A DNA stretch of 64,000 nucleotides from NCBI GenBank assembly GCA_964483475.1, contig CAZAAH010000003.1:142-64141 (forward strand), given 5' to 3'. Shown here one piece after another: positions 38,356 through 62,531 of this stretch; positions within the stretch are counted from its first letter, which is position 1; every line of letters begins with the position of its first letter. The notes below the pieces were generated by a model. It ran no database searches and was not told where the DNA came from. It was given only the letters and a program-made list of their open reading frames with translations. Both the position numbers and the translations under genes were made by a program. Source of the stretch: an uncultured Candidatus Saccharibacteria bacterium. Lineage in GTDB: Bacteria; Patescibacteriota; Minisyncoccia; Minisyncoccales; Staskawiczbacteraceae.

Positions 38356-38429
38356 CGGGCTGGAGTATGCCGGTAGTACGCGCCCATGGGGTGGGTGTAG
38401 ACTGGGTTCGATTCCCAGCAGCCCGACCA
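38356..38429 (+). tRNA. tRNA-Pro (anticodon GGG) with encoded CCA
   Basis: Manual fold: acceptor CGGGCTG/CAGCCCG, D-stem GTAT/GTAC, anticodon stem CGCCC/GGGTG with loop ATGGGGT, T-arm CTGGG-TTCGATT-CCCAG, ending ACCA. 74 nt. Confidence 0.7.
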
Positions 38430-59125: not shown

Positions 59126-59857
59126 TTAATGCTCACCAATTGTGGTGTGCAATGAAATGGAAACTAATGTCAGCATAGCAAATAAAAAAGCTTGAATCAA
59201 GCCGACGAAAATTTCCAAAAACAAAAATGGCAATGGAATAAAGTAGGGAGCTAAGAAAAAAATGATAGTCAGCAAAACTTCACCGGCAAAAACATTCCCA
59301 AACAATCTAAATGACAAAGAAATTATTTTCGCAACTTCTGAAACAAGTTCCAGTATTCCTATAAAAAATGCAATGGGATTTTTGAAGTTAAAAAATTTGC
59401 TGGCGTGAGGCAAAATTCCAACGACCGCCATCCCCAAAAGATTAGTTACTATTACAGAAATTAGGGCAAAAGATAAGGTAAAATTTAAATCAGCCGCCGG
59501 AGAACGAAAAACCGGCACTTTATTTGCGCCGTTGTTAATAAAAAAAGATCCAACTCCGGGCAAAATTCCCAATAAGTTTGAAGTTAGTATGAAAATAAAA
59601 ATGGTGGCAATGAGAGGAAAATACTTTTCGGCCCTTTCGGCGGACCCCAAGGTTTCTGACATTAAATTCAAAAACCATTCCATTCCCATTTCAATGGCCC
59701 CTTGCAATTTACCTGGAACAATATTCACCTTTTTGTAAGTCAAAAAAGCTAGTGAAACTAACAAGAGAGAAACGATAAACGTTAAAAATAGGCTGTTGGT
59801 TACAGCAAAGTTTCCCAATTTAAATAATTCTTCAGCCTTTAAAGAAATTTCGAACAA
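59126..59857 (-). CDS. atpB: ATP synthase Fo subunit a (TTG start)
   Basis: Conserved Arg in LSFRLFGNVFAGEV. Confidence 0.9.
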   Translation of the reverse strand: MFEISLKAEELFKLGNFAVTNSLFLTFIVSLLLVSLAFLTYKKVNIVPGKLQGAIEMGMEWFLNLMSETLGSAERAEKYFPLIATIFIFILTSNLLGILPGVGSFFINNGANKVPVFRSPAADLNFTLSFALISVIVTNLLGMAVVGILPHASKFFNFKNPIAFFIGILELVSEVAKIISLSFRLFGNVFAGEVLLTIIFFLAPYFIPLPFLFLEIFVGLIQAFLFAMLTLVSISLHTTIGEH

Positions 59858-59879
59858 TTTTTATGTTGCTGCGGGACTA

Positions 59880-59922
59880 GGACTCTCCGCCAGAGGCGGA
59901 TGCGCCTTTGGCGCAGAACCAG
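59880..59922. repeat. 43-bp direct repeat copy 1 (GGACTCTCCGCCAGAGGCGGATGCGCCTTTGGCGCAGAACCAG); second copy at 60280-60322
   Basis: Read directly. Two internal hairpins (GCGCCTTTGGCGC and CCGCCAGAGGCGG). 38 of 43 identical between copies. Confidence 0.65.
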
Positions 59923-59945
59923 TTAAATATTTTTGATCAATAAGC

Positions 59946-60015
59946 TGCGGGACTTGGATTCGAACCAAGATAAGCAGATCCAGAATCTGCTGTCCTACCA
60001 TTAGACGATCCCGCA
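59946..60015 (-). tRNA. tRNA-Gln (anticodon CTG)
   Basis: Manual fold: acceptor TGCGGGA/TCCCGCA, D-arm GTCT-AATGGTA-GGAC, anticodon stem GCAGA/TCTGC with loop TTCTGGA, T-arm CTTGG-TTCGAAT-CCAAG. Confidence 0.75.
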
Positions 60016-60017
60016 GC

Positions 60018-60263
60018 TTATTGATCAAGTATTCTATCCAAAAGGTGACGACCCTGCCCTGATTTTAAAAATAACTCTCTTTTTCTAGCTTCTCCAAGTG
60101 TTTGATATTCTTCTTTATATACTAACTCCCACGGGGCTCTGCCTTTTGTATAACGACATTTCCCAATATTATGTTCAATTAATCTTTTATTTACATCTTT
60201 GGTAACGCCGACATATCTTGTTTTATAATTCAAACTTTTTAAAACATATACGAAACTATTCAT
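60018..60263 (-). CDS. GIY-YIG nuclease family protein (YhbQ/UPF0213-like, about 81 aa)
   Basis: Start set at MNSFVYVLKSLNYKTRYVGVTKDVNKRLIEHN...GRAPWELVYKEEY. The track ORF N-terminus reads through the direct repeat. Confidence 0.7.
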   Translation of the reverse strand: MNSFVYVLKSLNYKTRYVGVTKDVNKRLIEHNIGKCRYTKGRAPWELVYKEEYQTLGEARKRELFLKSGQGRHLLDRILDQ

Positions 60264-60279
60264 TTTATTTTTAAAAATT

Positions 60280-60322
60280 GGATTCTCCGCCGAAGGACGG
60301 ATGCGCCTTTGGCGCAGAACCA
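60280..60322. repeat. 43-bp direct repeat copy 2 (GGATTCTCCGCCGAAGGACGGATGCGCCTTTGGCGCAGAACCAA)
   Basis: Read directly. Confidence 0.65.
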
Positions 60323-60370
60323 AGATAAATAGATCCAGAATCTATTGTCCTACCATTAGACGACCCGGCA
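60317..60370 (-). pseudogene. truncated tRNA-Gln (CTG) copy: 5' portion through the T-stem, fused to the direct repeat, no acceptor 3' strand
   Basis: TGCCGGG-TC-GTCT-AATGGTA-GGAC-A-ATAGA-TTCTGGA-TCTAT-TTAT-CTTGGTTC then the repeat. Compensatory differences from the intact copy in acceptor and anticodon stems. Confidence 0.5.
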
Positions 60371-60501
60371 GCTTTGGCAACGAACTAAATTTATTTTAAA
60401 TACTAAATTATAACAGGAATTACAATCTAAGTCAAAGAAATTTTATTTAAAAAAAGAACCCATCTTGCTATTGCTTGAAGGGCTTTAATTTGCTGATAAT
60501 T

Positions 60502-60909
60502 TTACTTTAGCAAATTTTTTCGGCATCGAGGACATATATACGCTTCTTCTGGCGACCCAAGAACAATCAAATCACTAAACATTTTACAATCCTCGCAAAA
60601 TAGCCGACTTGCTGGCAATGACTCTCGTCCGCATTCGGGACACTTATTGTCTCCTTCCTCAACTTTCTCAAAGAACTTCTCTCCATGGACCGGACAAATA
60701 ACGCGGCTTACTTTTAAACAACTAATGCTACCATCCTCTTCTTTCTTAATCGAAAAAAAATAATCGACATCTTTTCCTTTTGGAACTAGAACGCCTCCCT
60801 CCATTTGAGTTACCGTTTGCATAACCGGGTTATTTCCCGATTTGCTACAACCCAGTAAAACAAACAAGGCAGTGAGAATTGTGAAATGTCTCACGGGTAC
60901 ATCCTCCAA
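60502..60909 (-). CDS. putative lipoprotein with two CxxC zinc-ribbon pairs
   Basis: Lipobox LLGCSK. CPVHG...CPECG...CEDC...CPRC. Confidence 0.5.
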   Translation of the reverse strand: MEDVPVRHFTILTALFVLLGCSKSGNNPVMQTVTQMEGGVLVPKGKDVDYFFSIKKEEDGSISCLKVSRVICPVHGEKFFEKVEEGDNKCPECGRESLPASRLFCEDCKMFSDLIVLGSPEEAYICPRCRKNLLK

Positions 60910-61034: not shown

Positions 61035-62531
61035 CTATTCACTGGACGAAGGCGTGGGTTCAGTGGGGGTGGGCGATACAGGACCTATGTCACACATGTC
61101 TTTCTGTCCCGCCGGTGGGACCATACAATGATTTCCTCCTCCTCCTGGTTGCGGTGAGCATTTTTTATTTTTACAATCTAAGTGTGTCTTGCTATTACAT
61201 TCTAAATTATTATTACATTCAGGTTTTCCTGGCCCTGGCACTGGCTGACATACATATCCTCCTGATATTATAGATACACAATCTGCGTGAGTGGTATTAG
61301 TGCAATTACTATTTTGGCCAACGTTACACTTTGGACTACCGCTACCCGAAACACATTGATTACCATCGCAATGACCCTGTTCAAAACAATTTTTTTGACA
61401 TGCCGCGAGGGTAACGCCACTAGCAGATATAATACATTCAGGTTTTCCATCTTTATTAACACATGAGTAGTATTTTTTGGGTTGTGGAGGTGGTGGAGGT
61501 GGAAGTGGAAGTTTTGATTTTTGAAATAAAGCACCGAAGGGCGTAAACATTGACTTAAAGGGTTCTAAAAATAACTGTTTAAGTGTTGGTGATGACAAAG
61601 GGGGTGACGACGGAGGAGATGCCAACACGAGTGGTTTTAAATTATTTTTTTGTTGCAAAGAAGATGGAGTTGATGGGCGACGAGAGGAAGCCGACACAAT
61701 TGACGCGGTGTTTATAACGCATTCGTTAGTACCTCTCTTAATAGTTAAGTTTGTTAAGGTGCTTCCGTTGTCGCAGGTTGAATATTTTACAACCACGGGC
61801 AAAGAAGTTGTTATGCCGACACTGTAGACGCCAGGATTAATATTGTTAATAGTAGTCGACGATGATCCGGTTACAAGATTTCTCTGAAGAGGAGCTGACT
61901 TTAAGGCATCATTTGAATAATTGTATGTTTCATTATAATAAACCATTCCTCCACTTGTTTGGCCTGATGTTGAAGTGGTAGTAGTGGTGGTAGTGGAAGA
62001 TTGTGTGGTTGATGTTTGTGAAGATTGTAATTGAATCCCTGATGTTTCGCTTAAAGGGGTGGGAGGTGGTGGGGACGGCGGAGGTGATGACAGTACAACA
62101 ATCGTAAGAGAGCCGGTTGAAGTATCACCGCCTCCAGTAGATTCAGCGGGGTTTCCTCCATTACCTGTGAAGTTATAGCAACAAACTGGCGAGCTAGGAT
62201 CTGGGCAAGTTCCACTTCCAACCTTTCCTCCAGATGAAGTGCATGCTTCGTTTGAAGATACGCATGATTGGCCTAAGGAGGAGTTATTACAGTTGTTAGG
62301 AATAATATCAGGGGCGCAACAAATATAGTTCGTAGAAATGCCATCAGGACTGCAATTGCCAACCGAATGATATCCCGAGGAACAAACAAAGCCGCTACAA
62401 ATCTGTCCTGGACCATCGCATGGAATCACTCCATCTTGGGCGGCAACTGGAGTTGCAAAGTGAATTTGCAGCGTTAAAGCAAAAACTAAAATTGCAATGA
62501 GTAAAACAATCTTTGAAAAATATTTTTTCAT
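61035..62531 (-). CDS. secreted cysteine-rich protein with T/S/P-rich linker (498 aa)
   Basis: Signal peptide, many Cys in the N- and C-terminal modules, STTTTTTTSTS and PPPSPPPP linkers. Confidence 0.55.
   Translation of the reverse strand: MKKYFSKIVLLIAILVFALTLQIHFATPVAAQDGVIPCDGPGQICSGFVCSSGYHSVGNCSPDGISTNYICCAPDIIPNNCNNSSLGQSCVSSNEACTSSGGKVGSGTCPDPSSPVCCYNFTGNGGNPAESTGGGDTSTGSLTIVVLSSPPPSPPPPTPLSETSGIQLQSSQTSTTQSSTTTTTTTSTSGQTSGGMVYYNETYNYSNDALKSAPLQRNLVTGSSSTTINNINPGVYSVGITTSLPVVVKYSTCDNGSTLTNLTIKRGTNECVINTASIVSASSRRPSTPSSLQQKNNLKPLVLASPPSSPPLSSPTLKQLFLEPFKSMFTPFGALFQKSKLPLPPPPPPQPKKYYSCVNKDGKPECIISASGVTLAACQKNCFEQGHCDGNQCVSGSGSPKCNVGQNSNCTNTTHADCVSIISGGYVCQPVPGPGKPECNNNLECNSKTHLDCKNKKCSPQPGGGGNHCMVPPAGQKDMCDIGPVSPTPTEPTPSSSE

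Follow-up and report, generated by a model that had tools for sequence, protein, structure and literature searches.

A minimal GIY-YIG nuclease gene and a paired-hairpin module recur in split tRNA genes of bacteria as a candidate selfish element

Introduction

SegB, a free-standing GIY-YIG homing endonuclease encoded in the tRNA cluster of phage T4, recognizes a 27-bp site built on the motif GGTTCRANTCC (PMC2330249), and in phage T6 it cleaves within tRNA genes and drives the recombination-dependent tandem amplification of tRNA-Tyr together with segB (PMC13096335). Here we describe a chromosomal islet with a related layout in a 64,000-nt stretch of DNA from an uncultured Candidatus Saccharibacteria bacterium (assembly GCA_964483475.1, contig CAZAAH010000003.1, positions 142 to 64,141; hereafter the window). 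Upstream of the ATP synthase gene atpB, the gene of an 81-amino-acid (aa) GIY-YIG protein abuts an intact tRNA-Gln(CUG), and further pieces of tRNA-Gln on either side are split at the T-loop by a module of about 30 nt that forms two hairpins. The same combination, namely a GIY-YIG gene of ~80 aa, a two-hairpin module in a broken tRNA and, directly next to the nuclease gene, an intact copy of that tRNA, defines a family of loci that we regard with high confidence as real. From the sequence comparisons reported below, the islet is on balance probably one copy of a widespread family of selfish, homing-type elements that reside in tRNA genes.

The islet resembles SegB in three respects: the nuclease gene abuts tRNA genes in both; GGTTCRANTCC, the T-loop motif, is exactly the motif split by the module here; and tandem arrays of tRNA and nuclease genes occur in both, here at the related loci L052, L071 and L025. 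It differs in that SegB, which is I-TevI-like, has two domains including a NUMOD3 DNA-binding part, whereas the protein here is an 81-aa catalytic domain of Slx1/UPF0213 type; SegB is a phage enzyme, whereas the elements here are chromosomal; and SegB loci have neither the hairpin module nor a split tRNA copy.

Other known systems share some of these traits. Integrative elements that target tRNA genes also use tRNA loops as entry points, duplicate tRNA fragments and keep one intact tRNA, but the islet has no recombinase, its insert is only ~0.45 kb, both 5' and 3' parts of the tRNA are duplicated, and D-loops are used as well. Group I introns with homing endonuclease genes in bacterial tRNA genes are likewise selfish insertions in tRNA loops, and in Patescibacteria, the same phylum, self-splicing group I introns lie at tRNA position 35/36, in a report that does not mention GIY-YIG genes or hairpins (PMC13011429). 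The elements described here, in contrast, have no ribozyme and keep an intact gene copy in place of repair by splicing. The repetitive extragenic palindromes (REP) with their associated transposases (RAYT) and the IS200/IS605 elements carry short GC-rich hairpins of a family matched to the neighbouring nuclease gene, with possible solo copies, as here; their nucleases, however, are of the HUH type, and the modules described here are dyad pairs that are found only in tRNA loops and are not dispersed. In the archaeal split tRNAs (Nanoarchaeum, Caldivirga) pieces of tRNA genes also lie apart in the genome, but those halves are essential and joined as RNA, whereas the pieces here are redundant, truncated and of different alleles. 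Set against the known tRNA-targeting GIY-YIG elements, what is new is the minimal Slx1-type nuclease, the covarying dyad module, the split-plus-intact tRNA and the wide chromosomal spread.

Results

Organization of the islet upstream of atpB

The islet was read from the sequence of the minus strand between 60440 and 59860, where all the parts listed in a first-pass annotation of the window are present at the coordinates it had given. In 5' to 3' order, they and the parts added here are as follows.

60407..60435, minus strand: sigma-70-type promoter, TTGACT-17-TATAAT with a TG extension, 11/12 consensus matches, ~36 nt upstream of fragment A
60317..60370, minus strand: fragment A, tRNA-Gln(CUG) positions 1-56; Rfam 23.1 bits, 90% identity to the intact copy
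60286..60316, minus strand: upstream hairpin module, 31 nt, between T-loop C56 and G57; from the sequence and from covariation across loci
60278..60285, minus strand: remainder of fragment A, gaatccaa, T-loop 57-60 and T-stem 3' strand, to position 64; from the sequence
60018..60263, minus strand: GIY-YIG nuclease gene, 81 aa, stand-alone, by sequence of UPF0213/Slx1 type; PF01541, 47.3 bits
60016..60028, minus strand: 5' arm of a 13-bp acceptor-helix extension, ttgatcaataagc; part of a 20-nt inverted repeat, 100% complementary
59945..60015, minus strand: intact tRNA-Gln(CUG), copy C; ARAGORN, Rfam 62 bits
59933..59945, minus strand: 3' arm of the acceptor-helix extension, gcttattgatcaa, its first base being the discriminator G73; inverted repeat
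59916..59922, minus strand: short remnant of the T-stem 5' strand and TTC, ctggttc, ahead of the downstream module; a like remnant precedes the module in the 3' fragments of other loci
59886..59915, minus strand: downstream hairpin module; from the sequence and the direct repeat
59868..59885, minus strand: fragment D, tRNA-Gln positions 57-74, gagtcctagtcccgcagc; 89% identical to the 3' end of copy C
59126..59857, minus strand: atpB, ATP synthase subunit a; PF00119; begins 10 nt past fragment D, a neighbour outside the element

By its sequence, the sigma-70-type site is likely the promoter of the whole islet. Fragment A contains the acceptor 5' strand, the D-arm, the anticodon arm, the T-stem 5' strand and the T-loop TTC; it is 90% identical to the complete tRNA-Gln across 58 nt, and its Rfam tRNA score of 23.1 bits lies below the gathering score of 29. 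The upstream module that follows consists of hairpin 1, tgcgcc-aaa-ggcgca (60316-60302), and hairpin 2, tccgtc-cttc-ggcgga (60301-60286). After 60278 come a T-run and then the nuclease leader; the 3' acceptor strand is absent from fragment A. Copy C starts two bases past the nuclease open reading frame (ORF) and lies inside a perfect 20-nt inverted repeat that the 7-bp acceptor stem and 13 flank pairs make up (fold z = -7.5) and whose ttgatcaataagc arm overlaps the final codons and the stop codon of the nuclease gene. In the downstream module, hairpin 1 is again tgcgcc-aaa-ggcgca (59915-59901) and hairpin 2 is tccgcc-tct-ggcgga (59900-59886). Fragment D supplies the 3' part of the T-loop, the T-stem 3' strand and the acceptor 3' strand. 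Between A and D the T-arm is present twice, with T-stems of different alleles.

The two modules lie within direct repeats, 60322-60280 and 59922-59880, that share an exact 25-nt core and differ in the second hairpin by 3 substitutions and 1 indel; a 19-nt core of the repeat occurs twice in 64 kb, against 0.04 occurrences expected by chance. Each 43-bp repeat is composed of TGGTTC (T-arm 51-56), two 6-bp hairpins and GARTCC (T-loop 57-62); that is, it is a T-arm/T-loop carrying a ~30-nt hairpin insert. Past the downstream repeat, copy 1, the sequence continues as tagtcccgcagc (59879-59868), the acceptor 3' end of tRNA-Gln. The first-pass annotation had taken TGGTTC for a mimic of the T-arm start and had offered a duplicated-target arrangement. 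TGGTTC is instead a real T-arm, continued after the hairpins by the T-loop, and the repeat is neither a duplicated target site nor an attachment site but a conserved T-arm with a covarying hairpin-pair module that belongs to the element family. That annotation had also missed the GARTCC end of the repeat, the extension of fragment A to position 64, the tRNA 3' end after copy 1 and the 20-nt inverted repeat.

Comparison of the tRNA-Gln sequences agreed with the earlier claim that the two copies differ by compensatory substitutions: copy C and fragment A differ at two compensated anticodon-stem pairs (gcaga/tctgc versus ataga/tctat) and also at acceptor positions 4 and 7, the bases specific to A being C4, G7, A27 and U28. 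These compensatory changes uphold the proposal that the partial copy stems from a different functional tRNA-Gln allele. Further allele marks are the acceptor tgccggg in A, the acceptor tgcggga and T-stem cttgg/ccaag in C, and the T-stem 3' strand cctag in D, a T-stem type that matches the Staskawiczbacteria locus L004. By these marks, A, C and D appear to be three different tRNA-Gln alleles. Since A and D differ in allele, they would not be two halves of one gene, and the presence of three alleles would mean that the locus records at least two element events.

The architecture recurs at tRNA loops across bacterial phyla

A scan for relatives with one genome per species gave 414 confirmed loci, of which the best 80 were examined; all locus counts refer to these 80. 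They came from Patescibacteria, Omnitrophota, Margulisiibacteriota, Ignavibacteria, Acidobacteriota, Bacteroidota and others. A tRNA on the same strand abuts the nuclease gene in 66 of the 80 loci, and an opposite-strand tRNA near the nuclease gene was found in none of them. In 55 loci (type A) the tRNA begins within a few nucleotides of the stop codon, sometimes overlapping it; in 10 (type B) it ends just ahead of the start codon, and one locus has a tRNA on both sides. Among the remaining 14, six end at a contig end and the rest are tandem copies or, at L030, an assembly gap. GC-rich hairpins lie adjacent to the nuclease gene in 76/80 loci, and 66/80 carry extra pieces of the same tRNA. The tRNAs occupied are Gln (CUG, UUG), Tyr, Ser, Lys, Asn, Arg, Val, Ile, Phe, Ala, Leu, Cys, Thr and Trp. 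Type A loci have the order 5' fragment, hairpins, nuclease gene and intact tRNA, to which hairpins and a 3' fragment are often added, as happens in the window; type B loci have the order intact tRNA, nuclease gene, hairpins and 3' fragment.

Nucleotide-level maps placed the break point always at the apex of an arm: T-loop 56/57, the anticodon loop near 34-37 or the D-loop near 17-25. The hairpin pair sits exactly at the break, both stem strands of that arm are kept, and on the side facing the nuclease gene the broken copy is usually trimmed 6-10 nt past the hairpins. In 38 of 54 cases the identity between fragment and intact tRNA ends 0-2 nt from tRNA position +1, and mostly it also stops at the tRNA 3' end, which indicates that the shared sequence is the tRNA itself and that the flanks are unrelated. 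In the Ser(GGA) arrays the module-bearing copy has a full 3' end that the nuclease ATG abuts, so the ancestral unit looks like a tRNA plus nuclease gene without spacers. These results bear out the first-pass annotation in its reading of the islet as a signature left by insertion into, or targeting of, a tRNA gene. The annotation had also raised two cautions, that relatives might carry the arrangement with an intact second tRNA and that the repeat might be a common element unrelated to tRNA. The same kind of arrangement does occur in relatives, but with the second copy interrupted; the apparently intact second tRNA of L012 was rejected because the upstream ARAGORN call (1399-1474) runs into the hairpin module. 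The repeat does recur across genomes, but always embedded in a tRNA loop.

Copy number and state of preservation vary among the loci. L052 (435-1826) is a tandem array of four identical units, each of Ser[1-21], hairpins and nuclease gene, followed by an intact tRNA-Ser, and other arrays lie at L071 (1434-2096), L025 (951-1829) and L059 (323-956). The nuclease gene is truncated or frameshifted at L020, L030, L034 and L058. Between the outer fragment and the inner tRNA, compensatory differences occur in the window, L026 and L028 (5 compensated pairs), and stem-breaking differences only at L044. L030 has a distinct outer tRNA-Tyr allele; its sole tRNA-Tyr seemed interrupted, a candidate that was rejected since an intact gene is present and is split by a run of N in the assembly.

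The acceptor-helix extension of the window recurs in 19 loci with unrelated sequences (L017, L018, L026, L054, L072, L075, L037, L051 and others), extends 4-15 bp into both flanks and contains 13 G-U pairs against 10 other mismatches. This tolerance of G-U suggests a role at the RNA level, for example as an RNase III-type processing stem or in mRNA 3'-end protection.

Many of the 80 loci are found at a contig end or no more than ~100 nt from one; such elements evidently break or confuse metagenome assemblies and yield spurious tRNA calls, as at L012. Carriage by phages was rejected: among 2.9 million viral contigs there was one related locus. In the openly accessible literature we found no published description of this architecture, nor any link of UPF0213 to tRNA genes or hairpins.

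As a separate observation, extra single or paired GC-rich hairpins occupy the D- or anticodon loop in already broken 5' fragments (L015 1389-1413, L013 1350-1381, L008 1348-1379, L024 1369-1387 and 1409-1430, L002 1416-1434, L017 1243-1305). The fragment pieces around them stay 100% identical to the intact tRNA. They may be solo, non-autonomous modules of other element lineages.

The hairpin module is a conserved dyad

To avoid circularity, T-loop inserts were chosen by their flanks alone (GGTTC, 26-36 nt, RAATCC). Of the 54 inserts so selected, 39 are exactly 30 nt long (28 unique). Both hairpins form, with at least 5/6 Watson-Crick pairs each, in 28/28 unique 30-nt inserts versus 0/560 shuffles, and 98.8% of the alignment cells are paired versus ~35% when the partner strand is slid. 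Compensatory changes occur in 6 of the 12 pairs (40 cells), and the inner GCC/GGC pairs never vary. A single long hairpin, the minimum-energy fold given by RNAfold, was rejected: it shows one compensatory pair and scores lower for covariation than every shuffle. Because the two-hairpin fold covaries and the long one does not, the two-hairpin fold is the selected one.

The invariant columns (G4 C5 C6, A9, G10 G11 C12 / G19 C20 C21, T22, G25 G26) map onto each other by a dyad in which loop base A9 corresponds to loop base T22; hairpin 2 thus repeats the motif GCC-NNA-GGC in inverted form. This symmetry suggests a DNA site read by a dimer, or a cruciform, rather than an RNA signal. The module is a conserved cis module of the element family; within the 64 kb it has only two copies, both in the islet. 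It was considered as a dispersed repeat similar to REP or to miniature inverted-repeat transposable elements, and this was rejected on that count together with the confinement of a second hairpin family to 586-1226.

The protein is a minimal stand-alone GIY-YIG domain

The window protein matches PF01541 over residues 3-68 with 47.3 bits against a cutoff of 22.6, and its ORF is under purifying selection. In 52 homologues Y6, Y17, H31 and E63 are invariant and R27 is nearly so; all five residues are kept in the window protein and, by analogy with known GIY-YIG enzymes, are presumably catalytic. The best matches among solved structures are 1ZG2 (E = 2.8e-12) and 1YWL (1.5e-11), followed by SLX1 (1e-4) and, weakly, I-TevI (6.5e-3), in keeping with the YhbQ-like character first proposed for it. 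No NCBIfam model scores above its cutoff, TIGR01453 reaching 17.7 bits against 56. A survey of the superfamily in 2006 described the prokaryotic Slx1-like proteins as a minimal stand-alone domain of function not known, without the C-terminal Asn of the UvrC/I-TevI lineage (PMC1564403). The window protein, too, is a minimal single domain of 81 aa with no Asn after E63; it has the best matches and the size of this group, and on sequence grounds we assign it to the UPF0213/YhbQ/prokaryotic Slx1-like stand-alone branch. With only 81 aa, it does not have the two-domain build of the Seg proteins, a catalytic plus a C-terminal DNA-binding domain.

Many relatives share 50-70% identity with the window protein, and most of these come from Patescibacteria. 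A neighbour-joining tree grouped the proteins by the tRNA and loop that they occupy, with clades for Arg(ACG), for Ser(GGA), for the anticodon loop of Gln(UUG) and for the D-loops of Val, Ala, Phe, Ile and Asn, besides a large T-loop clade (Gln(CUG), Tyr, Ser, Asn, Lys) that includes the window copy. The five targets of the D-loop clade share a common D-arm sequence.

A second element of the same class in the window

The window contains a second element of this class on the minus strand at 586-1230, with a frameshifted nuclease gene, hairpins and tRNAs.

1153-1066, minus strand: tRNA-Tyr, followed by hairpins
984 (ATG) to ~712, minus strand: second GIY-YIG gene, with one frameshift near an A-run; the frameshifted part is also given as 752-984
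708-636, minus strand: tRNA-Thr(GGU)
620-586, minus strand: 3' fragment of a tRNA-Thr split at the T-loop, cgggagttc followed by two hairpins and aattctctccatcggctca

Its hairpins are of another family, with the core GC-TNA-GC, which has 8 copies in 586-1226 and none elsewhere in the 64 kb. Since the two nucleases of the window have separate hairpin families, the hairpin family follows the nuclease variant. At ~1300-1335 on the minus strand, shortly upstream of the tRNA-Tyr region, lies a tandem repeat of (aaagtca), ~4x, aaaagtcaaaagtcaaaagtcaaaagt.

The islet lies in a lineage-specific position

The host is close to Candidatus Staskawiczbacteria, and its contig also turns up in run SRR8931233. 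The region upstream of atpB was compared in 88 loci of relatives, 8 at 77-81% identity from exact-protein look-ups and 80 at 49-78% from a metagenome scan; neither a tRNA-Gln nor a GIY-YIG gene lies there in any of the 88. These loci thus offer no comparator for the empty-site check proposed in the first-pass annotation, and show only that the position of the islet is lineage-specific. In close relatives, response-regulator genes precede atpB, which places a rearrangement breakpoint at the islet. The tRNA-Gln/GIY-YIG islets of relatives adjoin ftsX/hsdM or response regulators, and only the islet itself is conserved. With neighbourhoods so unrelated, the synteny comparison is uninformative on movement.

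Discussion

If the islet is a selfish homing element, it may work in the following way. The nuclease would be transcribed from the tRNA promoter and, probably as a dimer or in a structure-specific manner, would cut the loop-coding DNA of element-free tRNA genes; for the clade of the window protein, the cut motif would be GGTTC/GAATCC (slash, cut), which phage SegB recognizes. The break would then be repaired by copying the element-bearing allele, with the tRNA halves serving as homology arms. As the hairpin module splits the target motif, the broken copy would no longer be a target, and the intact tRNA that travels with the nuclease would keep the cell alive. Were the two modules to recombine, the cell would be left with nothing but a module-interrupted tRNA and die, which would make the element hard to lose. 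The architecture, its recurrence, the covariation of the hairpins, the match of nuclease clade to loop, the variation in copy number and the decay were directly observed. Signs of a selfish life are the tandem arrays, the degraded copies, the two elements and hairpin families in one genome, the loci at contig ends and the unrelated neighbourhoods. Among the three explanations that the first-pass annotation had offered, a homing-type GIY-YIG cassette fits best.

A number of points weigh against this reading. We infer the nuclease activity, the cleavage site and the homing of this protein family from sequence and from analogy. A catalytic domain of 81 aa without a DNA-binding domain is unlike every characterized GIY-YIG homing endonuclease. 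Copy C retains the presumed target GGTTCGAATCC, so that self-cleavage must be tolerated or prevented. There is no pair of filled and empty alleles among the 88 atpB loci. The grouping of nucleases by tRNA and loop comes from a poorly resolved neighbour-joining tree of a protein of ~80 aa, and the 80 loci were picked by similarity to the window protein, so that the locus counts speak for that subfamily and not for other UPF0213 proteins. The model leaves unaccounted how 81 aa would find the target, how the right intact tRNA is acquired, where the module comes from and why the acceptor helix is extended; the G-U tolerance of that helix hints at a role at the RNA level that lies outside the model.

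It is also possible, if unlikely, that the family is a new class of mobile element, in which a minimal, structure-specific Slx1-type nuclease of ~80 aa and a 30-nt dyad module insert at the stem-loop apices of tRNA genes via folded or palindromic DNA and hold an essential tRNA hostage, since no copy but the one that travels with the element is intact. On that reading, no smaller non-autonomous mobile DNAs would be known than the solo hairpin modules of 15-30 nt. We are more doubtful of a hairpin-directed single-strand transposon, in which the module would be the end of the element, recognized as folded single-stranded DNA and pasted into the loops of a cloverleaf-folded tRNA gene during transcription or replication, with the tRNA duplications as by-products of repair. 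The stems covary as expected for a folded single strand, insertion is always at a stem-loop apex in three different loops, each nuclease variant of the window has its own hairpin family, the protein is kin to the structure-specific nuclease SLX1, and hairpins or pairs that look solo lie in broken fragments of L015, L013, L008, L024, L002 and L017. However, GIY-YIG enzymes are hydrolytic nucleases, and we know of no strand-transfer activity among them. The nuclease clades follow loop sequence classes common to several tRNAs, which suggests recognition of sequence rather than of pure structure; the dyad of the module fits recognition of a duplex or cruciform equally well; and the modules are not dispersed, both copies in the 64 kb lying in the islet.

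A domesticated, non-mobile locus seems similarly improbable. A host nuclease co-transcribed with tRNAs would here serve locus maintenance or repair, the hairpins would be REP-like stabilizers or processing signals, and the fragments would be debris of tandem duplication. The nuclease gene does always stand on the strand of the tRNA, tightly spaced behind the tRNA promoter; hairpins occur on either side of the ORF (5' in type A, 3' in type B); the extended acceptor helix contains G-U pairs; and purifying selection on the ORF with invariant catalytic residues would suit a host function. But the distribution over tRNA species and genomes is patchy, with tandem arrays and pseudogenized copies, one of them in the window. 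The fragments always break exactly at the module, ordinary duplication leaves the differing outer and inner alleles unexplained, and a dyad of conserved loop bases is not expected of an RNA stabilizer.

A system acting at the RNA level, in which the module would be an intron-like insert of a pre-tRNA that the GIY-YIG protein or a host enzyme removes, or in which A and D would be joined so that the outer tRNA is a functional split gene, is very unlikely. In its favour, a single transcript probably spans the islet; RNAfold brings the acceptor 5' strand of A and the acceptor 3' strand of D together at 6/7 positions, with a G-U at 7:66; a fusion of a prokaryotic Slx1-like domain with a tRNA methyltransferase is on record (PMC1564403); and Patescibacteria tolerate tRNA introns (PMC13011429). 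Against this, A and D appear to be different alleles, with a C-C mismatch at 4:69. The 5' fragments stop 6-10 nt past the module, many loci have no 3' fragment (for example L010 and L035), and an intact copy of the same tRNA is always present, that of L030 being interrupted only by the assembly gap. GIY-YIG enzymes, moreover, are DNA nucleases. Rfam searches of the islet region 59300-60900 (E up to 10) and of the whole window (gathering score) matched tRNAs only and no intron or ribozyme family, on which ground a group I intron or other known RNA in the islet was rejected. Still more speculative, and scarcely credible at present, is the idea that a transcript of tRNA fragment and module could be a guide plus scaffold for the nuclease. 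Another option of the first-pass annotation, the remnant of an integrative element, which would here be a phage or an integrative and conjugative element with tRNA-Gln as attachment site and the 43-bp repeats as attL/attR, can be dismissed: direct repeats with tRNA 3'-part sequence do flank a small cargo beside a tRNA, and integrases use T-loop and anticodon-loop sublocations, but there is no integrase or recombinase in the segment or its flanks (the neighbours are a putative zinc-ribbon protein and atpB), the same ~0.5-kb GIY-YIG-only architecture stands in 80 loci and three tRNA loops, the tRNA 5' part is duplicated as well, and the repeat core is a covarying hairpin pair absent from normal tRNAs.

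Should the reading as a selfish element in tRNA genes hold, it would give a subfamily of the large group of UPF0213/Slx1-like stand-alone GIY-YIG proteins its first biological context. To our knowledge, phage SegB provides the only experimental case of a homing-type nuclease directed at tRNA genes; such targeting would then prove widespread among bacterial chromosomes, above all in Patescibacteria, whose genomes are reduced and whose tRNA genes are single-copy and essential. A nuclease with a covarying hairpin pair and a replacement tRNA would be a compact and unusual selfish design, and its pairing of a target-disrupting module with a hostage gene bears on the biology of mobile elements. Enzymologists, too, may find an 80-aa nuclease with loop-specific targeting of interest. 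For annotation, these loci create tRNA pseudogene fragments, false or missed tRNA calls and broken metagenome assemblies.

Further features of the window

Upstream of the islet on the minus strand, 60502-60909 encodes a 135-aa protein with CxxC pairs and only sub-threshold zinc-ribbon matches, and 61035-62531 encodes a protein of 498 aa that has a high content of Cys, Ser, Thr and Pro and matches nothing in Pfam. At 38356-38429 ARAGORN called a tRNA-Pro(GGG), for which the Rfam tRNA model stayed below the gathering score in the whole-window scan; it may be a weak or false tRNA.

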